A stretch of DNA of 64,000 bases from Caenispirillum bisanense (GTDB taxonomy: Bacteria; Pseudomonadota; Alphaproteobacteria; Rhodospirillales; UBA2165). Each line of letters starts with the position of its first letter. Position 1 is the first letter of the stretch. The stretch covers positions 15,549 to 79,548 of the forward strand of contig CAMDWJ010000005.1 of the NCBI GenBank assembly GCA_945877815.1, read 5' to 3'. A program made the translations under genes and the position numbers. The notes beneath the pieces were generated by a model, which was not told the origin of the DNA, searched no databases, and was given only the letters and a program-made list of their open reading frames with translations. This document shows, one piece after another, positions 3,216 to 50,550 of this stretch.

Positions 3216-3443
3216 ATGATGTACATTCTCGCGATCGTTCTGCCACCGCTGGCCCTACTCATCCAAGGGCGCGTCATTCAGGCGGTGCTTAACCTCATTC
3301 TATTCGTCCTCTCGATCGTCTTCGCGATCTTCTCCTTCGGAACATTGTGGATGATCTGCGTCGCCTGGGCGATCTACGTCGTCTACCGCGATCGGTCGGA
3401 CAACCGCATACGCCGCATCGCCGAGGAAACCCTGCCGCGCTGA
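3216..3443 (+). CDS. YqaE/Pmp3-like small membrane proteolipid
   Basis: MMYILAIVLPPLALLIQGR resembles the ILPPLGV motif of the UPF0057/YqaE family. Two TM helices. Start set at the MMY codon. Confidence 0.6.
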   Translation: MMYILAIVLPPLALLIQGRVIQAVLNLILFVLSIVFAIFSFGTLWMICVAWAIYVVYRDRSDNRIRRIAEETLPR

Positions 3444-4399: not shown

Positions 4400-6208
4400 T
4401 CATAAATCGAGATCTCCTTCGGGATCGACATCACCATAATCGTCGTCGCTGTACTCGGCGTTGGGTGACGTCGACGGCACATCCATGGTCACAGCGGCCG
4501 GCAAGAGCGCCGCGCCGATCGCGCGCACCTGTTCCAGCTCGGCGCCCGGAAAGGCATCGAGGATGGAGCGCATCAAGGGATGGCGCGTCACTTCCTCGCG
4601 TTTGTCGCGCGCGGCCGCATCTTGCTGTTCGCCCAGCGTTTCGGCGCCGCCGCTTTGCACGACCGTCACCATCCAACGGGCACCCGTGACGGTGCCGAGG
4701 AAACGGCTGATCCGATTGGGTAGATCGCGGACCGCGCCGGCACTCAATCTGATTTCGAGTTGCCCCGGCTGGAAGGACACAAGATGCACATTGCGCATCA
4801 TCTCGGCGCGCAGCATGCGTTCACCCTGCGTCTCGGCCAAGGCAATGATATCAGCAAAGCTACGTGGGCCCACTTGTTCCTCGGGCCGCGGCTGGACCTC
4901 GGTACGCGCGACGGCCTGGGTGTTACCTTGCGGCATCGAGGCCCGCGGCGAGCGCTGCGGCGATGGGCCCGACGGCGCGGGCGCCACTCCTCCGCCTTGC
5001 GGTGCCGAGGCCGGCGCGGTCGTCAGGGCTTTGGCCGCATCGGCCGGGGTCGGCAGATCGCTCATGAAGGCTAGCCGGATCAGGATCATTTCGGCGGCCT
5101 GTAACGGCGCGGGTGCGGTGGCCGCTTCGCGCACGCCCTTCAGCAGCATCTGCCAGGCGCGCGTCAATTCGCCCATGGATAAAGTTTCGGCCAGCGCCTT
5201 GCCGCGCACCCGATCGAGTTCGGCCACCATGGGATCGTCGGCCGCACCGGGCGCCACTTTCAACCGCGTCACCCAATGGGTTACGTCGAGCACATCCTGG
5301 AGCAAGATGATGGGATCGGCGCCGGCGGCGTAATCGGCGGCCAGAGTCGCGATCGCGCCCGGCGCGTCGCCCGCCATCACGCGCTCGAAGATATCGAAGG
5401 AGCGCGCGCGATCGGCGAGCCCCAGCATGGCACGCACTGATTCTTCAGTGAGCGCGCCCTGATCACCCGTGCCGACCGCGATCGCCTGATCGAGCAGGCT
5501 CATCCCGTCGCGCACCGAACCGTCGGCGGAGCGCGCGATCAGGCGGATGGCACCCTCCTCGACCTTGGCGCCCTCGCGGGCGGCAACAGTGGTGAAATAA
5601 GCGGCGAGCGTTTCCACATCGACGCGGCGCAGATCGAAGCGCTGACAGCGTGACAGTACCGTCACGGGAACTTTCCGGATTTCCGTGGTGGCGAAGATAA
5701 ATTTCACGTGCGCCGGCGGTTCTTCGAGCGTTTTGAGCAGCGCGTTGAAGGCACCCTTCGACAGCATATGCACTTCGTCAATGATATAGACCTTGTAGCG
5801 CGCCGCGACCGGGCGATAGCGCACCCCGTCGATCAGCTCGCGCATATTGTCGACGCCGGTATTGCTGGCCGCGTCCATCTCGATCACGTCGACCATGCGG
5901 TCGTCGGCGATCGAGCGGCACATGTCGCACACGCCACACGGATTGATCGTTGGCCCGCCGGTCCCGTCGGGGCCGATGCAATTGAGAGCGCGGGCGATGA
6001 TGCGCGCCGTGGTCGTCTTGCCGACGCCGCGCACGCCGGTCAGGACGAAGGCATGCGCCAGCCGGCCCGATTCGAAGGCATTGGTGAGCGTGCGCACCAT
6101 CGCGTCCTGCCCGATCAACGCGTCGAAATTCGACGGCCGATAGGTACGCGCAAGAACGCGGTAGCCGGCCTTGGAGTCTTTACCTGTCAGTTCGGCTGAT
6201 TCACTCAT
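4400..6208 (-). CDS. dnaX: DNA polymerase III subunits gamma/tau
   Basis: Walker A GVRGVGKTTTARI, zinc module CGVCDMC, SRC motif (LSRCQRF), and a long Pro/Ala-rich linker. Start at MSESAEL. Confidence 0.95.
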   Translation of the reverse strand: MSESAELTGKDSKAGYRVLARTYRPSNFDALIGQDAMVRTLTNAFESGRLAHAFVLTGVRGVGKTTTARIIARALNCIGPDGTGGPTINPCGVCDMCRSIADDRMVDVIEMDAASNTGVDNMRELIDGVRYRPVAARYKVYIIDEVHMLSKGAFNALLKTLEEPPAHVKFIFATTEIRKVPVTVLSRCQRFDLRRVDVETLAAYFTTVAAREGAKVEEGAIRLIARSADGSVRDGMSLLDQAIAVGTGDQGALTEESVRAMLGLADRARSFDIFERVMAGDAPGAIATLAADYAAGADPIILLQDVLDVTHWVTRLKVAPGAADDPMVAELDRVRGKALAETLSMGELTRAWQMLLKGVREAATAPAPLQAAEMILIRLAFMSDLPTPADAAKALTTAPASAPQGGGVAPAPSGPSPQRSPRASMPQGNTQAVARTEVQPRPEEQVGPRSFADIIALAETQGERMLRAEMMRNVHLVSFQPGQLEIRLSAGAVRDLPNRISRFLGTVTGARWMVTVVQSGGAETLGEQQDAAARDKREEVTRHPLMRSILDAFPGAELEQVRAIGAALLPAAVTMDVPSTSPNAEYSDDDYGDVDPEGDLDL

Positions 6209-33783: not shown

Positions 33784-34658
33784 TGCCCTCCAAGCAAGAG
33801 CCCGTCGCGATCGACAGCGACGGACTCAAGCTCTCCGCCGTCGTCCACGTCCCGTCCGATCTGAAACCCGGCGAGAAACGCGCGGCGGTCCTCATTTTGC
33901 ACGGCTTCGGCGGTCACAAGGACGGGCCGCAGCAACGCTGGTCATCGAACCAGTTCGTAGCCTGGGGCTATATCGCCGTGCGTCTCGATTATCGCGGCTG
34001 CGGCGAGAGCGAGGGCAAACGCGGCTGGACCCTGCCAATGGAACAGGTCGCCGATACGCGCAACGCCATGACCTATTTGGCTGGCCGGACTGACGTCGAT
34101 GCGTCGCGCATCTGCCTGCTCGGCACCAGCTACGGTGCGTCGGTCGCCATCTGGACGGCTGCGGCGGATGAGCGCGCCTGCGCGGTGATCTCGCAGGGCG
34201 GCTGGGCCAACGGCGAGCGCAAGGCGCGCGAGCAGCATGCGAGCCCGGAAGCCTGGAAAAAATTCTCCGACATGCTGGAGAGAGGACGCGCCCACAAGGC
34301 GAAGACCGGCGAATCCATGATGGTCGATCGCTACGACGTAGTGCCGGTGCCAGAACATCTGCGCGCCAATATCGATTCGCGCTCGATCTTCCAATTTCCC
34401 GTCGATACGCCCATCGAAACCTTCGCCTTCCATCCCGGCGACATGATCGCCAAGGTGGCGCCCCGCCCCATCCTCCTCATGCATGCCGCGAACGACCGGG
34501 TAACCCCGGTGAACGGCGCGATCGAACTGTTCCAGGCGGCGAAACAACCGTGTGAGTTGTATCTGATGTCCGACGTCGATCATTTCATGTTCGGCGAGGA
34601 CAATCCGCGGGTTATCCACTTCGTCAAAGACTGGCTCGACCGTTATTTTCCGGCATAA
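33783..34658 (+). CDS. alpha/beta hydrolase
   Basis: HGFGGHK oxyanion region, nucleophile elbow GTSYG, and C-terminal D/H (NDRVTP, DHFMF). Its ATG overlaps the LigB stop (TAATG). Confidence 0.8.
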   Translation: MPSKQEPVAIDSDGLKLSAVVHVPSDLKPGEKRAAVLILHGFGGHKDGPQQRWSSNQFVAWGYIAVRLDYRGCGESEGKRGWTLPMEQVADTRNAMTYLAGRTDVDASRICLLGTSYGASVAIWTAAADERACAVISQGGWANGERKAREQHASPEAWKKFSDMLERGRAHKAKTGESMMVDRYDVVPVPEHLRANIDSRSIFQFPVDTPIETFAFHPGDMIAKVAPRPILLMHAANDRVTPVNGAIELFQAAKQPCELYLMSDVDHFMFGEDNPRVIHFVKDWLDRYFPA

Positions 34659-34694: not shown

Positions 34695-35315
34695 GTGAGC
34701 GAGCCAAAACGGCGAGACGAAAGTCTCGCGACGATATCTGCGTCCGCGCCGCTCGTACGGGCGACTCTTTGGCTATCCGCCGTCGCTGCGATCGCCACAA
34801 TTTCCGTGTTCCTATTCGCGGATATGGACCTGGTCAGACGTCATTTAAAGACGCCCTATGCATGGCTCGAACTCGGCGCCATCGCCCTGACCGCGTGTGC
34901 CGCGATCCTGGCCGCTTTCTGCTTAAATACATCGCGAACCTCGCCCCGGCGGGTTTTCCTCCCCGTTCCGCCGCTTACGCTATGGCTGATCGTTTGCGCC
35001 TACGATTGCCTGAGGCACGTCACCCTGGTCGGGGCCGAGGCGTGGGATTTAGGCGATAGCCCGCACTGCGTCCTTTTCATTCTCGCCATCAGCATTCCGC
35101 TCGGCATTAGCGTGATGGCGACGTATCGTCTACGGCCGGGCCGCTCGTCTGCCCTCGCCGGGCTCGGCGTTGCAACATTCGCAATCTGCCTGCTGCAGTT
35201 CTTCCACCCGTTCGATTCGAATCTCACAGACCTGATCGCGCATATAACAGCGGCGGCGATCGTAGTCGGCGCGATGACTTATTCGGCGCAGCTCATGCCA
35301 ACGATTCGAAGCTGA
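34695..35315 (+). CDS. NrsF-family (DUF1109) anti-sigma-F paralogue, orphan copy 1
   Basis: Six-TM pattern with family motifs DSPHCVLFILAISIPLG and LLQFFHPFD. Paralogous to the gene at 39106-39741. GTG start. Confidence 0.75.
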   Translation: MSEPKRRDESLATISASAPLVRATLWLSAVAAIATISVFLFADMDLVRRHLKTPYAWLELGAIALTACAAILAAFCLNTSRTSPRRVFLPVPPLTLWLIVCAYDCLRHVTLVGAEAWDLGDSPHCVLFILAISIPLGISVMATYRLRPGRSSALAGLGVATFAICLLQFFHPFDSNLTDLIAHITAAAIVVGAMTYSAQLMPTIRS

Positions 35316-35380: not shown

Positions 35381-36076
35381 GTGAAGAATCGACTCGAACA
35401 GTATTTGTTGTCCGCACAGTCAGCAGATATCGCGCGAAAGACCCGAACCGTGACAGAGACGAAACGCCGTAGCGACCGCCTCGCCACACATACTGCGTCT
35501 GCTCCGCTGACCTGTGCGATGGTATTTCTCGCAACCTTGGCGTTTGTCGGCGGTTTGCTCGGCTATTTATTCGCCGACCATGATGAGTTGGCGCGCCAAA
35601 TCCGCGACCCGCGCGCAGCGTTCGAATGGTTCGGCGCGGGACTAACGACCGTCGGCGCGATCTTGGCGACGTTTCGCATGCATGCGCATGGCCCCACCGC
35701 ACTGTGGCGCGCCGGACCTTTGCTGACCTTCGCGACCTGGCAACTCGCGACGATTTATCTTTGCCATGACATCCCCACGGAGAAGCCCGCCGAACAGATT
35801 CTTTATGGACACAGTCCCGACTGTTTCCTGTTCATCCTGGCGATCAGCATTCCAGTAAGCAGCGCGTTGTTCTGGGTGTTGTGCCAACACCGCATCCCGC
35901 TCGGCAGTTCCGTGGCGGCCATGGCGGGCTTAAGTGCCGCGGCGGCATCGATCTGGCTCATGCAGTTCTTCCACGCGTTCGAGATGAATATCGGTGATTG
36001 GTCGATCCACTTCGCCGTGATCGGCATCGTCGTCGGATGTGCCGCTTATGCACGGCACATACTATCCAGCGATTAG
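35381..36076 (+). CDS. NrsF-family (DUF1109) anti-sigma-F paralogue, orphan copy 2
   Basis: Motifs HSPDCFLFILAISIPVS and LMQFFHAFE with the same TM layout. The GTG start is uncertain. Confidence 0.72.
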   Translation: MKNRLEQYLLSAQSADIARKTRTVTETKRRSDRLATHTASAPLTCAMVFLATLAFVGGLLGYLFADHDELARQIRDPRAAFEWFGAGLTTVGAILATFRMHAHGPTALWRAGPLLTFATWQLATIYLCHDIPTEKPAEQILYGHSPDCFLFILAISIPVSSALFWVLCQHRIPLGSSVAAMAGLSAAAASIWLMQFFHAFEMNIGDWSIHFAVIGIVVGCAAYARHILSSD

Positions 36077-36495
36077 TGTTCGATCTTGCGCACAATGAGG
36101 TGATCGAGCGAAATAGTGCCGGGCCCTCGCGTCAAAATGTAGCCGAGCATCGCGACCCACATAAGATGCGCGTTCCAGGATTCCGGATATACAAAGATCT
36201 GGATCACCACCGTCATTGCCAGCAACGGCAAGGTCGCTAGGCGCGTCGCTATACCAAGCAGCAAGAGTACAGGGCATGACAATTCCACTGCGGTCGCGAA
36301 CATCGCCGCAAGTTCGGGCGGCAGAAAAGGCACGCGATATTCGTCGCGAAACAGGACGATCGTCGTCTGCCAGCTGTCGATTTTGGTGAGGCCAGAATGC
36401 CAAAAGACTCCACCCACGGTCAGGCGGAACACAAACTGAAAAATCGATAGCGGCAGTCGCTCCATTTCCATCAACAATGATTTGAGATTCAACAT
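36073..36495 (-). CDS. DoxX-family membrane protein (last gene of the DUF2282/MNIO operon)
   Basis: RLTVGGVFWHSGLTKI...FATAVELSCPVLLLLGIATRLATLPLLAMT is a typical DoxX sequence. It starts 5 nt after the DUF2063 stop. Confidence 0.8.
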   Translation of the reverse strand: MLNLKSLLMEMERLPLSIFQFVFRLTVGGVFWHSGLTKIDSWQTTIVLFRDEYRVPFLPPELAAMFATAVELSCPVLLLLGIATRLATLPLLAMTVVIQIFVYPESWNAHLMWVAMLGYILTRGPGTISLDHLIVRKIEH

Positions 36496-36499
36496 CGTC

Positions 36500-37282
36500 T
36501 TAGGCACTCCCAACCAAGTTAAATCCCGCGATCGCGCCTTCGATGAACAGAGCCGCGCATTCCGCATTCACATCGAACTCGCCCTCTACGCCGGCGACAG
36601 CCTCAATGGCATCGCCGAGGGCGGTTCCGCCGTCCAGCGCGGCGCGAAAAGCGAAGGTTGCCGGTGCGAGCTCGCGGAATTCGACCACGCCGTCGCGGCG
36701 ACGCACTTCCAGCAACGCGCCACCGGATTCTAGATTGACGGGTGCGCGCGCAGTCACTTCAGATTGGTTCGCGCGCCAAATCTCAATGATCGGCCAAGGC
36801 GAGCACAAATATCCGAACGAGGGCTGGAATCGGAATGTCAGGCGTTCGGCATCGGCAGCGGCGAGCCCGCCAAGACTAGCCGGGTCCAATGGCGTCCCAT
36901 CGGCTGCCGCGCCGGCGCGCTGCAGCACCCATTCCAGCCGCGCGACATCAGCGAGATAGACCAATTCGCGGCAGGGAGGAAAATCGGCGAGAAAATCGGC
37001 AAATCGAGCGCCATAACCCGCAACGCAAGGAGTATCGGGCGGCAGACCGCAAATAAATTCGTGGGCCGCGAAGGCAAAAAAGCGCGCATCGACCAGCCGG
37101 CATACGACCGGAAAGGTCTCGGCAAGCGCCGCGCTCAGGGACATCCGGGCATTATTACGATGGATCTCGATCCGTTCGGCGGCGGCGATCCCCTCGACCT
37201 CGATAAATGCGGCCAGGGCCGTCGTGTCGCCGGCGAGAATGGCCCGGCGGAAGTCCCGTTGAATCTCAAGCAGCGAGGACAT
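36500..37282 (-). CDS. bufC: DUF2063-family protein, putative MNIO partner subunit (BufC-like)
   Basis: MSSLLEIQRDFRRAILAGD...IHRNN...LEWV is the DUF2063 N-domain pattern. It overlaps the DUF692 gene by 17 nt. Confidence 0.8.
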   Translation of the reverse strand: MSSLLEIQRDFRRAILAGDTTALAAFIEVEGIAAAERIEIHRNNARMSLSAALAETFPVVCRLVDARFFAFAAHEFICGLPPDTPCVAGYGARFADFLADFPPCRELVYLADVARLEWVLQRAGAAADGTPLDPASLGGLAAADAERLTFRFQPSFGYLCSPWPIIEIWRANQSEVTARAPVNLESGGALLEVRRRDGVVEFRELAPATFAFRAALDGGTALGDAIEAVAGVEGEFDVNAECAALFIEGAIAGFNLVGSA

Positions 37283-38108
37283 GAATGCTCCGCGCGATAC
37301 TTGCCTCGGCCACCAAATCTGCGAGGGCAGGCAGGTTCTTGTCGCGTTCGATCAGGCTCGGCACCGCGCCGAAACGATTGAGCGCAGCCCCGAACAGCGT
37401 CCAGACCTCGTCGCAAATGGCAGCGCCGTGATCGTCGATCAGCAAAGTCCGTTCGTCGATGTCGCACCGCGCATGACCGGCGAGATGGATTTCGCCGATC
37501 GCATCGGCGGGAAGCGTTTCCAGATAGAGGATCGGATCTTCACCGACATTGTGCGCGTTCACATAGAGATTGTTCACGTCGCAGAGAATTCCGCAGCCGG
37601 TGCGGCGGACGAGTTCGGCCAGAAATTCGGCCTCGGGAATGCGCGAATCACGAAAGCGCAGGTAACGCGAAGGATTCTCGACGAGCAGGGATCGGCCGAG
37701 ACCATCCTGCGCCGCCGCCACATTGCGAGTAACGATAGCGAGCGACTCTTCGGTGTAAGGCAGAGGCAAGAGATCGTTGAGATAGGCGCCGTCCACCACG
37801 CTCCAGGACAGATGCTCGGAGACCAAGAACGGTTGGACACGGTCGATCAGATCGCGAAAGCGCCCGAGATGGTCACGATCGAGCCCCTCCGCGCTGCCGA
37901 GCGACAGGCCGACGCCATGCAAACTCAGCATGAAGTCGCGGCGGATGTACATGAGCCGGGTGAAAGCCGGCCCGAAATCCATATAATTCTCGGCGTGCAC
38001 TTCGAGAAAATCGAGCGCGGGACGCGTTGCCGACAACTCATCGACGTGCGGTGCGCGCAGACCTATACCGATCTGCGCCTCCGCCCGTCGTGTTCGATCG
38101 TCGAACAT
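37266..38108 (-). CDS. bufB: DUF692-family multinuclear non-heme iron oxidative enzyme (MNIO; MbnB/BufB-like)
   Basis: IGIGLRAPH, FLEVHAENY, SLHGVGLSLGS, SEHLSW, LLVENPS, CDVNNLYVNAHN, IHLAGH and DDHG are the TIM-barrel metal-ligand motif series of DUF692. Confidence 0.88.
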   Translation of the reverse strand: MFDDRTRRAEAQIGIGLRAPHVDELSATRPALDFLEVHAENYMDFGPAFTRLMYIRRDFMLSLHGVGLSLGSAEGLDRDHLGRFRDLIDRVQPFLVSEHLSWSVVDGAYLNDLLPLPYTEESLAIVTRNVAAAQDGLGRSLLVENPSRYLRFRDSRIPEAEFLAELVRRTGCGILCDVNNLYVNAHNVGEDPILYLETLPADAIGEIHLAGHARCDIDERTLLIDDHGAAICDEVWTLFGAALNRFGAVPSLIERDKNLPALADLVAEASIARSIHVLAA

Positions 38109-38134
38109 GATCGCGTCCCGCGCCGATTGCCTGA

Positions 38135-38416
38135 TTACATCGGCTTCAAAGTAGCGCCTTGGATTTTCGCGCAGGTACCGACCGGCACGTAGATCCAGGC
38201 CTTGGGATCACTGGCGCGTTTGGCTTCGCCGGCGCACGAATTGCTGTTGGAGGAGGCGCAATCGTTTTTTCCGACCGCATTGACACCGTAGCATTTCTCG
38301 GCCTGGAAGCTCGGCGTGGGCGCCGGGGCAGCATTGGCCGCAAGCATGGGCAGGGCCACGAGGGCCGAGAAAGCCGAGGCCGCAAGCAGCGCGCTTTTGG
38401 TAGAAATATTTTGCAT
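38135..38416 (-). CDS. bufA: DUF2282-type Sec-signal, 4-Cys precursor peptide (BufA-like RiPP precursor)
   Basis: 93 aa. Signal peptide MQNISTKSALLAASAFSALVALPMLAANA|AP. Core with EKCYGV, NDCAS, NSCAGE and GTCAKI. SD GGGAGA lies 8 nt upstream. The track ORF (171 aa) was trimmed to the ATG at 38416. Confidence 0.85.
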   Translation of the reverse strand: MQNISTKSALLAASAFSALVALPMLAANAAPAPTPSFQAEKCYGVNAVGKNDCASSNSNSCAGEAKRASDPKAWIYVPVGTCAKIQGATLKPM

Positions 38417-38485
38417 GGATGAATCTCCCATTATGCTGAAGTGGATTACGGACCCAACATTGTCTACAAAGGTCCGTGCTCCCTG

Positions 38486-38511
38486 TTCGCACGATGACCG
38501 CACCGGGTTAC
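38486..38511 (-). promoter_or_regulatory. ECF sigma-F-type promoter candidate (GTAACC-N16-CGAA) driving the bufA operon
   Basis: The minus strand reads GTAACC CGGTGCGGTCATCGTG CGAA. It sits about 70 nt upstream of the bufA ATG. It is the only perfect occurrence I could find in the window. Confidence 0.6.
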
Positions 38512-38544
38512 AGGGGGCGGCGATAAAAACGAAAGCCCCCAGAC

Positions 38545-39102
38545 TTGGCGCGAACGAGAGAAAAAAACGCCGACTGGTCCCGCTGGATGGCGGCGGGACA
38601 GAACGGCGATTCGGCCTCCTATGAGCGACTCTTGCGCGCCGTGGTGCCATTCGTGCGGGCCGTCGTATCGCGCCATCATCGCGGAGACCGTATCGACGAT
38701 GCGGTACAGGACGTGCTCCTGACCGTCCATCGCGTGCGCCATACCTACGACCCGGCCCGGCCTTTCGACAATTGGCTTGCGACGATCGCGCATCGTCGGT
38801 CGATCGACCTCCTGCGTCGCCGCGCCCGTATCGCCGCCAACGAGACGAACGACGAATTGGCCTATGAAACCTTTGCCGATCCCATGGCGAACTCGGACTT
38901 GGAGAGGAATGCGCGGACCGAGGGATTGAGCGCGGCGATTGCCGCTTTGCCAGAAAGCCAGCGTGAGGCGATAGACTTGCTAAAGGTGCGCGAAATGACT
39001 CTGATCGAGGCGGCGCGAACCAGCGGCAAATCCATCGCGGCGTTGAAAGTGAATGTCCACCGCGCGATCAAAACGCTGCGGGCGCGGATGAAAGGAGATT
39101 AA
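38545..39102 (+). CDS. sigF: ECF RNA polymerase sigma factor (SigF-like)
   Basis: Region 2 (DDAVQDVLLTVHRVRHTYDPARPFDNWLATIAHRRSIDLLRR) and region 4 (LPESQREAIDLLKVREMTLIEAARTSGKSIAALKVNVHRA). The TTG start is uncertain; an in-frame ATG lies about 14 codons downstream. Confidence 0.88.
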   Translation: MARTREKNADWSRWMAAGQNGDSASYERLLRAVVPFVRAVVSRHHRGDRIDDAVQDVLLTVHRVRHTYDPARPFDNWLATIAHRRSIDLLRRRARIAANETNDELAYETFADPMANSDLERNARTEGLSAAIAALPESQREAIDLLKVREMTLIEAARTSGKSIAALKVNVHRAIKTLRARMKGD

Positions 39103-39105
39103 GAC

Positions 39106-39741
39106 GTGTCGGAAACTACGGACCAATTGATCCACCGGCTAGCACAGGATGCCGGTCCCGTCCGCCGCTTGAAAACGCCGCTGATGCGCGCCGCGGCCTG
39201 GTTCGCGGTGGTCGCGACAGGTTCCGCCGCCGCCGTAATCTGGCTCGCCGATTTTCCCGAATTCATGGCGCGCGCACACGATCCGCGCCATCTAATTGAG
39301 CTTGCGGCGACCCTGATGACCGGGGTCCTGGCGATCATTGCTGCCTTCGAGATGAGCCTGCCCGATCGCGCTCGCGCCTGGGCCGCCCTGCCGCTGCCGG
39401 CGCTCGCCCTATGGCTCGCGACAGCGGGTACTGGCTGCGTGCAAAATTGGATCGCGGGCGTGCCGTCGGATCCGAGCGAGAGCGCGGATTGTTTCGCCAT
39501 CATCGTCGCCACGAGCATCCCGCTCGCCGCGGTCCTTCTCTGGATGCTGCGCCGCGCGAAACCGCTGGCGCCCGGGCCGGTCGCGGCGATGGGCGGGTTG
39601 GGGGTGGCGGGCATCGCCGCATTTCTGCTGCAATTCTTCCACCCCTTCGACGTGACCCTGCTCGATCTTGCGATCCACGCCGTCGCGGTCGGATTGGTCG
39701 TCGGCGTATCCGCCGTCTCGGCGCGTGCGCTCCCCGCCTAA
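39106..39741 (+). CDS. nrsF: NrsF-family (DUF1109) anti-sigma-F factor
   Basis: Begins 3 nt after the sigma stop. Six TM helices. Motifs SADCFAIIVATSIPLA and LLQFFHPFD. Confidence 0.85.
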   Translation: MSETTDQLIHRLAQDAGPVRRLKTPLMRAAAWFAVVATGSAAAVIWLADFPEFMARAHDPRHLIELAATLMTGVLAIIAAFEMSLPDRARAWAALPLPALALWLATAGTGCVQNWIAGVPSDPSESADCFAIIVATSIPLAAVLLWMLRRAKPLAPGPVAAMGGLGVAGIAAFLLQFFHPFDVTLLDLAIHAVAVGLVVGVSAVSARALPA

Positions 39742-48814: not shown

Positions 48815-50550
48815 GCCTTCCGCCGAAACTCAGCTTCGCCGAACTTTTCACACCGAAACTCATTACCGTCTGGCGAGAAGGCTACGGCTTGCGCGAATTG
48901 CGCGCCGATGCGCTGGCTGGATTGACGGTTGCGATTGTCGCGCTGCCCTTGTCGCTCGCCATCGCCATCGCATCGGGTGCCTCGCCGGAACGCGGTCTCT
49001 ATACCGCGATCGTCGGCGGATTCCTGGTTTCGGCGTTTGGCGGCAGCCGGTTCCAGATCGGCGGTCCGGCCGGCGCCTTCATCGTGCTCGTCGCCGCTAT
49101 CATCCAACGGCACGGCATCGACGGGATGCTGCTCGCCACCATTCTCGCCGGGTGCATCTTGATGCTGGGCGGCATTCTGCGTCTCGGCACTTACATCAAA
49201 TTCATACCCTATCCGGTCACGGTCGGATTCACCGCCGGCATCGGGGTCATCATTTTGGCGAGCCAGTTGCGCGACTTCTTCGGCCTCACACTCGCCGAAG
49301 CCGAACCCGGACCGTTCCTGGCGAAGATCGTGACGCTGGCATCGGCTGCCGCGACGATCAATCCGGTTGCCCTCGCGATCGCCGGCTGCACCATTGCCAC
49401 GATCCTCGTGCTACGTCGCATCGCACCCCATTGGCCGGGCATGCTGATCGCGGTGGCCGGCGCCGCCACCCTGACTTTCGCATTCAATCTGCCGGTGGAA
49501 ACCATCGGCACGCGCTTCGGCGGCCTGCCATCGGGCCTTATCTTGCCGGCGCTGCCCGAGATCACCTTGCAGCGCATCGTCACGATCCTGCCCGATGCCT
49601 TTTCGCTGGCGCTACTCGGCGCCATCGAATCGCTCCTATCGGCCGTGGTCGCGGATGGCATGTCCGGACGGCGCCACCGTTCGAACGGCGAGTTGGTAGC
49701 CCAAGGCATCGCCAATATCGGCTCGGGCCTGTTCGGCGGCATCTGCGTCACCGGCACGATCGCGCGCACCGCGACCAACGTGCGCGCCGGCGCGATCGGC
49801 CCGATCTCGGGCATGCTGCACGCGGTCTTCTTGTTGGGCTTTCTCGTTTTGGCGGCGCCGGTGGCGAGCTACATCCCGCTCGCGGCACTCGCCGCCGTGC
49901 TCGTCCATGTCGCCTGGAATATGGCGGAAAAAGAGGAAATCGCGATTCTGTTGCGGGTTTCGCGCGGCGACGCGGTCGTTCTTCTGTCGAGCTTCCTACT
50001 CACGGTTTTCTACGATCTTACGGCCGGCATCCTCGTCGGCTTCGGCATTGGCACCTTGTTGTTTCTCAGCCGCATGGCTCAGTCGATCGAGGTGCAGACG
50101 CTGGCACCGATGGTACCCGCCGACGCGTCGGACGAGACCGAAGAAAGCACGCGCTATGACGCCGCACTCGCCAGCAATCCCGATGTCGTCGTCTACCGGA
50201 TCTCGGGCGCCTTCTTCTTCGGCGCCGCCGCGACCGTCGGCGCGGTGCTCGACCGTATCGCAGATACCCACAAGGCGCTCGTCTTCGATCTGTCAGGCGT
50301 GCCGTTTCTCGATTCGACCGGCGCCAGCACGATCGACGGCTTCGCCCGCAAGGCTGAACGCGCCGGGATCAAAATGTTATTGGTCGGCGTGACACCGACG
50401 ATCCGGCGCATGCTGAAGCTGCATCACGTCCGCCCGCCGCGCGTAATCTTTCGCGCGACCATCGCCGATGCGCTCGCCACCCTCAACGGGGCGAGCGGTG
50501 GCGCGATCAGCGCGCGAGACCTCGACGGGTCGGAAGACGAAACCGGCTGA
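48811..50550 (+). CDS. SulP-family anion (sulfate) permease with C-terminal STAS domain
   Basis: GLTVAIVALPLSLAIAIASG and the Sulfate_transp core. STAS region VVVYRISGAFFFGAA...LVFDLSGVPFLDSTG. Confidence 0.9.
   Translation: MSLPPKLSFAELFTPKLITVWREGYGLRELRADALAGLTVAIVALPLSLAIAIASGASPERGLYTAIVGGFLVSAFGGSRFQIGGPAGAFIVLVAAIIQRHGIDGMLLATILAGCILMLGGILRLGTYIKFIPYPVTVGFTAGIGVIILASQLRDFFGLTLAEAEPGPFLAKIVTLASAAATINPVALAIAGCTIATILVLRRIAPHWPGMLIAVAGAATLTFAFNLPVETIGTRFGGLPSGLILPALPEITLQRIVTILPDAFSLALLGAIESLLSAVVADGMSGRRHRSNGELVAQGIANIGSGLFGGICVTGTIARTATNVRAGAIGPISGMLHAVFLLGFLVLAAPVASYIPLAALAAVLVHVAWNMAEKEEIAILLRVSRGDAVVLLSSFLLTVFYDLTAGILVGFGIGTLLFLSRMAQSIEVQTLAPMVPADASDETEESTRYDAALASNPDVVVYRISGAFFFGAAATVGAVLDRIADTHKALVFDLSGVPFLDSTGASTIDGFARKAERAGIKMLLVGVTPTIRRMLKLHHVRPPRVIFRATIADALATLNGASGGAISARDLDGSEDETG

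Follow-up and report, generated by a model that had tools for sequence, protein, structure and literature searches.

The 64,000-nt stretch of DNA from Caenispirillum bisanense (contig CAMDWJ010000005.1) analysed here, hereafter called the window, contains a 128-bp control region that separates a leftward bufferin gene cluster from a rightward gene pair for a sigma factor of the extracytoplasmic function (ECF) type and its anti-sigma factor, and that carries PbufA, a predicted promoter directed at the cluster. On the minus strand, bufA (38135..38416) encodes a 93-aa DUF2282/BufA1 precursor with a signal peptide and four cysteines, in the contexts EKC, NDC, NSC and GTC (Pfam PF10048, E = 1.7e-20), followed by bufB (38108..37266), encoding an MNIO protein (MbnB/DUF692; PF05114, E = 4.6e-98), bufC (37282..36500; DUF2063, PF09836, E = 6e-21) and doxX (36567..36073; PF07681, E = 2e-17). 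With a DUF2282 precursor and DUF692, DUF2063 and DoxX proteins all matched by Pfam, the cluster is a buf1-type bufferin cluster, that is, one for a ribosomally synthesized and post-translationally modified peptide (RiPP), and the short or overlapping gaps between the genes are consistent with a single putative bufA-bufB-bufC-doxX transcript. On the plus strand, the sigma gene (38545..39102; Pfam Sigma70_r2/r4_2) is followed by nrsF (39106..39741), which encodes a DUF1109 membrane anti-sigma factor with six helices (PF06532, E = 8e-22). The sigma factor was assigned to group ECF16 from its NrsF/DUF1109 partner and the Pfam matches.

The extent of the control region depends on the start of the sigma gene. 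The public gene call begins at ATG 38587 (171 aa), but residues W11 and S12 upstream of it are conserved in homologs, and one relative encodes the serine from the other codon family (TGG-AGC, a TCN/AGC switch), showing that the 14 upstream codons are translated. The only in-frame start after the stop codon at 38524-38526 is TTG 38545, at which a Shine-Dalgarno sequence is not visible; we took this codon as the start, and the control region is therefore 128 bp long.

Within this region, the minus strand reads GTAACC-CGGTGCGGTCATCGTG-CGAA at 38511..38486, with the A of the bufA ATG (38416) 69 nt downstream of the last A of CGAA (38486), in agreement with the original prediction of such a motif directed toward bufA about 70 nt from its ATG. 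The -35 element (38506..38512, minus strand) consists of GTAACC (38511..38506) preceded by a T (38512), as in the published tGTAACc, and the -10 element (38484..38489, minus strand) consists of CGAA (38489..38486) followed by CA, the spacer being 16 nt. The same sequence, GTAACC-N16-CGAA, was described by Kohler et al. (2012) as the Caulobacter sigmaF-binding sequence upstream of the same four-gene operon (PMC3511200), which bears out the definition of a SigF-type promoter from which the prediction had started. The ECF16 consensus has been given as tGTAACc-N16-CGAA, with Bradyrhizobium japonicum EcfF's transcription start site (TSS) 6 bp past the -10 box (PMC3420878), and another published form of the ECF16 motif is GTAAC(g/a)-N14-15-(c/t)CG(t/a) (PMC3511200 / PMC3420878). 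By analogy with EcfF and with Caulobacter CC3254, whose TSS was mapped at -61 from the start codon (PMC3511200), the TSS of bufA-bufB-bufC-doxX is predicted at 38478..38481 (minus strand); we infer a start near 38479, about 6-7 nt past CGAA, which would give a leader of ~63 nt.

The perfect motif occurs once in the 64 kb, as had been claimed, compared with a mean of 0.04 copies expected from 100 dinucleotide shuffles. Relaxing the spacer to N14-19 added one copy, an N17 form at 34500(+) inside a hydrolase coding sequence and upstream of an NrsF paralog, which scored only 6.6 bits with a position matrix trained on 51 related loci from which the window was excluded. With this matrix, PbufA scored 23.7 bits, the next real site 15.0 bits and the best site in the reversed-sequence control 17.4 bits, so that a window-wide scan for further regulon members yielded, apart from PbufA, no site above the control. 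One-mismatch copies were more numerous than in the shuffles (10 vs 2.7). Those at 5259, 19919, 28212, 33286, 34590, 42810, 49029 and 59421 all scored below the control and were judged to be noise; the annotated ones lie in or beside dnaX, a LigB dioxygenase gene and lptA/lptB before rpoN, and that at 49029 is antisense to an open reading frame (ORF). The earlier statement that the near-misses all have a wrong spacing or -10 element has to be corrected, as a site at 38866..38891(+), inside the sigma gene, has N16 and CGAA and differs only at the second position of the -35 element (GAAACC).

Conservation of the motif was assessed in 80 loci retrieved with a sigma-protein profile from species-representative genomes, mostly metagenome-assembled genomes of Stellaceae/Rhodospirillales together with some Caulobacterales and Steroidobacteraceae, at 54-74% identity. 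Upstream of the sigma gene, 53 of the loci contain a perfect GTAACC-N15/16-CGAA and 13 more a one-mismatch form, mostly GTAACT, and in all 66 motif-bearing loci the motif was on the strand facing away from the sigma gene. Its distance from the W11 codon was 29-106 nt in all loci except L080 (306 nt). The flanks were also conserved, with T before GTAACC in 47 of 52 sites and, after CGAA, C in 41 and then A in 37, and the spacer in the relatives was N15 in 36 sites and N16 in 16. In addition, A+T content reached 62-69% at -15 to -18 from GTAACC vs about 30% in the adjacent columns (52 loci); in the window, an A/T-rich patch, ATAAAAA (38523..38529), lies 12-18 nt upstream of the -35 element and could be a UP-like element for PbufA or a piece of the translation start region of the sigma gene, which lacks a Shine-Dalgarno sequence. 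The site was also present at four of six more distant, plasmid-borne loci.

The divergent partner was bufABC-doxX in about half of the loci. In those without an adjacent bufA, the divergent promoter precedes the gene for a ~75-aa secreted protein or a weakly DoxX-like membrane protein, and the presence of the ECF16 element before genes other than bufA is independent evidence that it is the promoter of the divergent gene. These partners are either a membrane protein of ~190 aa with a weak DoxX_2 match (E = 0.006) or a secreted protein of ~75 aa without a Pfam family, with the motif YDGADRF[RK]D...GW (L008, L009, L015; L010, L016, L020, L022, L028).

The -35 and -10 elements and their spacing, the cognate sigma gene next door, the orientation and distance to a known regulon member and the conservation of the site in 66 of 80 relatives all point to a SigF-type (ECF16) promoter aimed at bufA, as the original prediction proposed. 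The best explanation of the locus, which we hold with high confidence, is a 128-bp divergent region with one ECF16 promoter, PbufA, and a stem-loop in the leader of its transcript, accompanied by an internal motif in the sigma gene that is aimed at nrsF.

The inverted repeat noticed earlier, acggacc (38448-38454) and ggtccgt (38471-38477) with a 16-nt loop, is present as described. In the transcript it would form a 5'-leader stem-loop, ACGGACC(U)/(G)GGUCCGU (38447..38478, minus strand), of 7-8 bp with a loop of 14-16 nt, starting 2-3 nt past the predicted TSS; with one G-U pair, the stem has 8 bp, the loop 14 nt and the fold -12.8 kcal/mol. Taken by itself, the hairpin is marginal against shuffled sequences (z = -2.15 for a 38-nt piece, with 7 of 200 shuffles folding as well), and the fold of the whole leader has z = -0.9, so that whatever weight the hairpin has comes from conservation. 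When 50-nt segments starting 4 nt past CGAA were folded in 52 loci, the mean z was -1.14 vs -0.25 for random control segments (Mann-Whitney p = 4e-7), and a strong hairpin, counted as a perfect stem starting 5-16 nt past CGAA, was found in 61% of 38 bufA-type loci (p = 6e-10 against controls), 16% of 492 random controls and 14% of 14 non-bufA loci; the related loci are phylogenetically non-independent, and such p-values therefore overstate the evidence. At least eight different stem sequences occur at the same leader position, those of the subgroups including ACGGACC (the window), GGGCG, GCGGGGCG, GGCCCC, GCCGGGC and CGTGCGGCC. Thus, position and pairing are conserved in the bufA leaders, and sequence is not; the proposal of a hairpin at the start of the leader, made for the window, extends to relatives. 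From these comparisons, we conclude that the hairpin is a real leader feature, specific to bufA.

From 12 leaders aligned with MAFFT, RNAalifold returned only an invariant 4-bp GCAU/AUGC pairing without covariation and missed the 5' hairpin, as the stems cannot be aligned; Rfam 15 gave no match up to E = 10 in 38000-38900. The 3' part of the leader contains an AGCATAA box (38437..38431) and the Shine-Dalgarno sequence GGGAGA (38429..38424; the two together at 38424..38437, minus strand) before the bufA ATG (38416..38414), ending as GGGAGA-N7-ATG; its A, G, C, T and A columns are invariant or nearly so in 12 related leaders. The AGCATAA box is kept in the window-like subgroup, and its GCAU can pair with AUGC at the start codon (4 bp, invariant).

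In stabilizing stem-loops of the ompA type, a stable hairpin begins a few nucleotides from the 5' end and is not followed by a terminator tail. The window hairpin likewise lies near the 5' end, here a predicted one, and has no terminator tail, although its loop of 14-16 nt is unusually large. As only 2-3 nt would separate the stem from the predicted start, protection of the 5' end is favoured, and the most likely role of the hairpin is one in the RNA, where it would serve as a 5'-terminal stabilizer against 5'-end-dependent decay. A different role for the repeat is unlikely: instead of stabilizing RNA, it could be bound as a DNA operator by a repressor or metal sensor, act in pausing or attenuation, or form the 5' hairpin of an antisense sigma leader starting in the bufA translation-initiation region. 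It covers +2 to +31, where operators are typically found. In one alignable subgroup, pairing of the stem is 93%, but the arms, GCGG...CCGC, are invariant, with almost no compensatory change; given this sequence conservation, a role at the DNA or protein level retains some probability, and the argument for structure rests on the different stems at one position instead of on classical covariation. The stems are, however, wholly different between subgroups while position and pairing are kept, which disfavours a sequence-specific protein site, and the hairpin is missing at loci in which this promoter serves a different gene. As for attenuation, no T-run follows the hairpin (AATCCACTTCAGC does), and a terminator scan of 38100-38800 was empty. 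An antisense sigma leader could start just before the repeat in the window-like subgroup, from a weak sigma-70-like element, TTTGCA-N16-TATGCT (38410-38437, plus strand), antisense to the bufA ribosome-binding region, but only 7 of the 52 loci have this element, which falls short of the scan threshold, and it was rejected as a candidate promoter. We therefore retain the stabilizing stem-loop as the preferred reading of the repeat.

The original prediction also stated that no equivalent motif faces the sigma gene, and this proved true of perfect, one-mismatch and relaxed forms alike. Among the window and 79 related loci, a relaxed motif (GTAAC-N15-19-CG[AT]) within 230 nt was found in none on the sigma-facing strand vs 64 of 80 on the other, and the 28 loci lacking a perfect divergent copy contained no sigma-facing motif with up to one mismatch within 250 nt. 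The cognate motif that marks an autoregulated operon is thus missing upstream of the sigma gene. The suggestion drawn from this, that the sigma/anti-sigma pair may not be autoregulated, can be upheld for sigma, with no facing motif in any of the 80 loci, but probably not for nrsF, as a motif inside the sigma gene is conserved in 78 of 79 loci (see below). A tool scan found no sigma-70-type promoter for the sigma gene either. In many relatives, no more than 10-33 nt separate the sigma start codon from GGTTAC, which is the -35 element read on the other strand, and the sigma promoter must therefore overlap PbufA. Presumably, the sigma gene is expressed at a basal level from a promoter other than the SigF type.

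A sigma-facing promoter might, in principle, share the -35 region of PbufA back to back. The sequence GTTACA-N17-CGAA does exist in the window (38507..38533, plus strand) and would drive a near-leaderless sigma transcript with weak autoregulation; the 14 of 52 loci with CGA[AT] 18-21 nt past GGTTAC stand out modestly against a background of about 1 per offset, A follows GGTTAC in 47 of 52 sites, and every studied ECF16 sigma factor shows some sigma-dependent expression of its own gene. We nevertheless regard this arrangement as improbable. The -35 block has two mismatches, including loss of the AAC core, and falls below the matrix-scan threshold, leaving the site without a score, and the spacer is off by one. 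The element is missing from three quarters of the relatives, in many of which CGAT overlaps the sigma ATG, so that a start 6 nt on would be inside the ORF, and the conserved A is equally the T of tGTAACC read on the other strand.

Still less probable, and in our view very much so, is that the whole motif has been read in the wrong direction and is the sigma gene's own plus-strand promoter, with TTCG (38486-38489) as -35 element, GGTTAC (38506-38511) as -10 element and a start ~27 nt before the sigma start codon. This reading draws on a 2026 TSS study of Cupriavidus, which lists the ECF16 motif as xAATTCG (-35) and xxGGTTAC (-10), the reverse complement of the usual form (PMC13492112), and on the fact that nearly all relatives have the motif just upstream of the sigma gene. 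In Caulobacter, B. japonicum and Brucella, however, mapped 5' ends place GTAAC at -35 and CGAA at -10, and the Cupriavidus study did not find its reversed motif at the RpoQ-dependent rpoQ TSS, reporting a GAATAA-like -10 element there instead (PMC13492112). In Burkholderia glumae, the motif, read from GTAACC to CGAA, directly precedes a co-directional DUF2282 gene; in L080, it is 306 nt from the sigma gene; and the distance to the gene, the Shine-Dalgarno sequence and the leader hairpin are all conserved on the bufA side. The reverse-complemented consensus may explain why the Cupriavidus study lacked an ECF16 motif at rpoQ or gig (PMC13492112). A merely accidental occurrence of the motif in GC-rich intergenic DNA, with the operon driven otherwise, has a negligible probability: only 10 bases are specified and one-mismatch copies are frequent (10 in the window, mostly in housekeeping genes), but 0.04 perfect copies are expected per window, the site lies with correct flanks in the single 128-bp region where it was predicted, and its retention on one strand only in the 66 relatives effectively refutes the idea. 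PbufA, directed at the buf operon, thus remains the favoured reading of the motif.

The less ordinary part of the locus is that no SigF-type promoter precedes the sigma gene, while one apparently lies within its coding sequence, aimed at the gene of its inhibitor. The site mentioned above, taT-GAAACC-tttgccgatcccatgg-CGAA-ct (N16; 38866..38891, plus strand), occupies codons Y107-N116, lies 215 nt before nrsF and, at 15.0 bits, has the second-best matrix score in the window. A scan of the relatives for extra perfect motifs returned five inside the sigma coding sequence (L010, L020, L022, L028 and L043), all at this same position, and with up to two mismatches the intragenic motif was present in 78 of 79 loci, the sole exception being the second paralog in one genome, which has reverted to GAG. 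In a codon alignment of 79 sigma genes, the stretch at the motif showed the strongest synonymous-site constraint in the gene, and its codons are ones that these GC-rich genes otherwise seldom use. For example, E108 is encoded by GAA in 72 of 73 cases at the site, compared with 22% of the Glu codons elsewhere in the gene, F110 by TTT in 63 of 71 (11% elsewhere), Y107 by TAT in 71 of 77 (53% elsewhere) and A115 by GCG in 78 of 78 (53% elsewhere), and T109 by ACC in 74 of 78 (elsewhere not tabulated); D112, P113 and N116, which correspond to the spacer or lie past the -10 element, vary freely. In the same gene, the nrsF Shine-Dalgarno sequence AAAGGAGA (39090..39097) lies within the sigma gene end, and the rare Gly184 codon GGA at this position is used in 54 of 64 loci.

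The motif was also sought in six more distant ECF16 loci, on plasmids and chromids, with 46-54% identity. Five of them (L083-L085, L087 and L088) contain the intragenic site, which in Burkholderia glumae (L088) is perfect although the five intervening residues are wholly different; the sixth, from Methylobacterium, has no intragenic site and has a perfect sigma-facing motif instead. On the B. glumae plasmid, sigma, nrsF, DUF2282 and DUF692 genes are on one strand, with the perfect intragenic motif at 2307(+), a second perfect motif at 3236(+) just before the DUF2282 gene and none before the sigma gene.

A motif inside the sigma gene, upstream of nrsF and under selection at the DNA level, is what an internal anti-sigma promoter would look like, and 38866..38891 is probably an internal SigF-type promoter that serves nrsF without sigma. 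With the synonymous sites of this near-consensus copy kept in 78 of 79 loci, nrsF is probably autoregulated. We found no description of an internal anti-sigma promoter for ECF16 in the literature searched, and the sigF locus is not listed in the supplements of the Caulobacter global TSS study. More generally, we lean, by a modest degree, toward the view that the bufferin-linked ECF16 sigma genes sampled in alpha-, beta- and gamma-proteobacteria carry a cognate promoter, TAT-GAA/GTA-ACC-TTT...GCG-AAy, in the codons of the sigma2-sigma4 linker, which would fix rare codons and probably the residues E/V-T...A-N and would make NrsF, and not sigma, SigF-inducible; in the clade of the window, in which an upstream promoter was lost or never existed, the outcome would be pure negative feedback.

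A working model for the locus can be proposed. Under metal or oxidative stress, NrsF would, by homology, release the neighbouring ECF sigma factor, and the RNA polymerase bearing it would bind PbufA and transcribe from near 38479 through bufA-bufB-bufC-doxX, the operon for a copper-chelating bufferin RiPP. The transcript would open almost at once with the GC-rich stem-loop (38477..38448), which may stabilize the precursor mRNA. Sigma would be supplied at a basal level from a non-SigF promoter, with no positive feedback, and the internal copy at 38866..38891, slightly weaker than PbufA, would make nrsF alone SigF-inducible, forming a negative-feedback loop for shut-off.

Several points weigh against this overall picture. 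The predicted TSS, sigma dependence and inducing signal derive from homology, with sigma identities of 54-74% to uncultured relatives and lower ones to the studied systems, and a promoter expressing sigma was not found. The intragenic -35 element carries a T-to-A change, which may alter its recognition by the sigma factor of the window, and the intragenic site may conceivably be conserved for some other role in DNA or RNA.

Two further NrsF/DUF1109 paralogs lie in tandem at 34695-35315(+) and 35381-36076(+), convergent with doxX, so that the window has three NrsF-type genes within 5 kb. The matrix scan of the window found no good SigF motif before these two genes, and a search of the flanks of the 80 related loci yielded no such paralogs. 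Cys 111 and Cys 129 are invariant in the window NrsF and 47 other sequences (45 relatives and the two paralogs of the window, both of which keep the two cysteines). None of these sequences has a Cys near 179-181, where, by residue number, the proposed signal-sensing residues of Caulobacter (C181) and B. japonicum (C179) are located.

The promoter and SigF control of the bufferin operon are already known biology, as in Caulobacter, and the promoter itself adds little beyond extending the SigF/bufferin-operon pair to an uncultured Stellaceae-like lineage of alphaproteobacteria, in which the motif can be used to predict the SigF regulon. The orientation evidence from the 80 loci calls for caution in genome-wide promoter calls, as an ECF16 motif "upstream of sigma" is in most cases that of the divergent operon, and the motif seems to have been used in reverse complement by at least one recent study. 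The conserved hairpin in the leader points to a possible post-transcriptional layer, amenable to testing, in the control of a RiPP precursor mRNA, and the motif frozen in codons suggests a shut-off route and provides a clear example of a regulatory signal that constrains a coding sequence.

Comparison with Caulobacter CC3252-CC3257 shows the same divergent order as in the window (NrsF and sigma on one side; DUF2282, DUF692, DUF2063 and DoxX on the other), nearly identical protein lengths (window/Caulobacter: 93/93, 280/280, 260/254, 164/150, 185/179 and 211/214 aa), the same GTAACC-N16-CGAA and a predicted leader of ~63 nt vs a start mapped at -61. CC3254-3257 is solely sigmaF-dependent, and its promoter needs both the -35 element, as shown by a deletion test, and sigF (PMC3511200); buf1 and buf2 have since been found to be SigF-controlled, and bufferins to be copper-chelating RiPPs (Leprevost et al. 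2024; PMC11626156). By homology, the buf operon of the window would be directly sigma-dependent as well. Unlike the window and its 79 relatives, in which no motif faces sigma, Caulobacter sigF has its own "highly similar" promoter and is itself copper-induced, and the Caulobacter paper mentions neither a leader hairpin nor an internal motif (PMC3511200). The two systems also differ in the cysteines of NrsF (111 and 129 in the window, about 131 and 181 in Caulobacter) and in the two extra NrsF paralogs of the window.

The ECF16 systems of Sinorhizobium meliloti (RpoE7), B. japonicum (EcfF/OsrA), Brucella (BcrS/AbcS) and Cupriavidus (RpoQ/RsqA-gig) share with the window a sigma factor, a DUF1109 anti-sigma factor and TGTAAC...CGAA promoters. 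In S. meliloti and Cupriavidus, a divergent DUF2282/DUF692/DUF2063 operon is present as in the window, the S. meliloti operon SMb20530-20527 having TGTAAC...CGAAT and being an RpoE7 target (PMC6180224), whereas the Brucella and B. japonicum regulons contain MsrPQ and methionine-rich peptides. In each of these four systems, the region upstream of the sigma gene gives sigma-dependent expression. Mapped promoters bearing the motif make B. japonicum ecfF and Brucella bcrS autoregulated and S. meliloti rpoE7 has a predicted motif upstream, but the window has none before sigma; the upstream region of Cupriavidus rpoQ is RpoQ-dependent, with no motif identified there.

For the internal site, the closest parallels are sigma-dependent promoters that serve the anti-sigma gene alone, namely, PrshA of Corynebacterium glutamicum (PMC3489674), rseA P3 of Escherichia coli (PMC8595263) and the ecfR6 promoter inside rpoE6 of S. 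meliloti (PMC6180224). As at the predicted site in the window, the anti-sigma factor is induced and sigma is not, the proposed role being rapid shut-off, and housekeeping promoters alone drive the sigma gene of C. glutamicum, as may hold for that of the window. These systems belong to other ECF groups; unlike them, the predicted site of the window type lies within codons for the sigma2-sigma4 linker and keeps rare codons constant in alpha-, beta- and gamma-proteobacteria alike, apparently together with the residues E/V-T...A-N.

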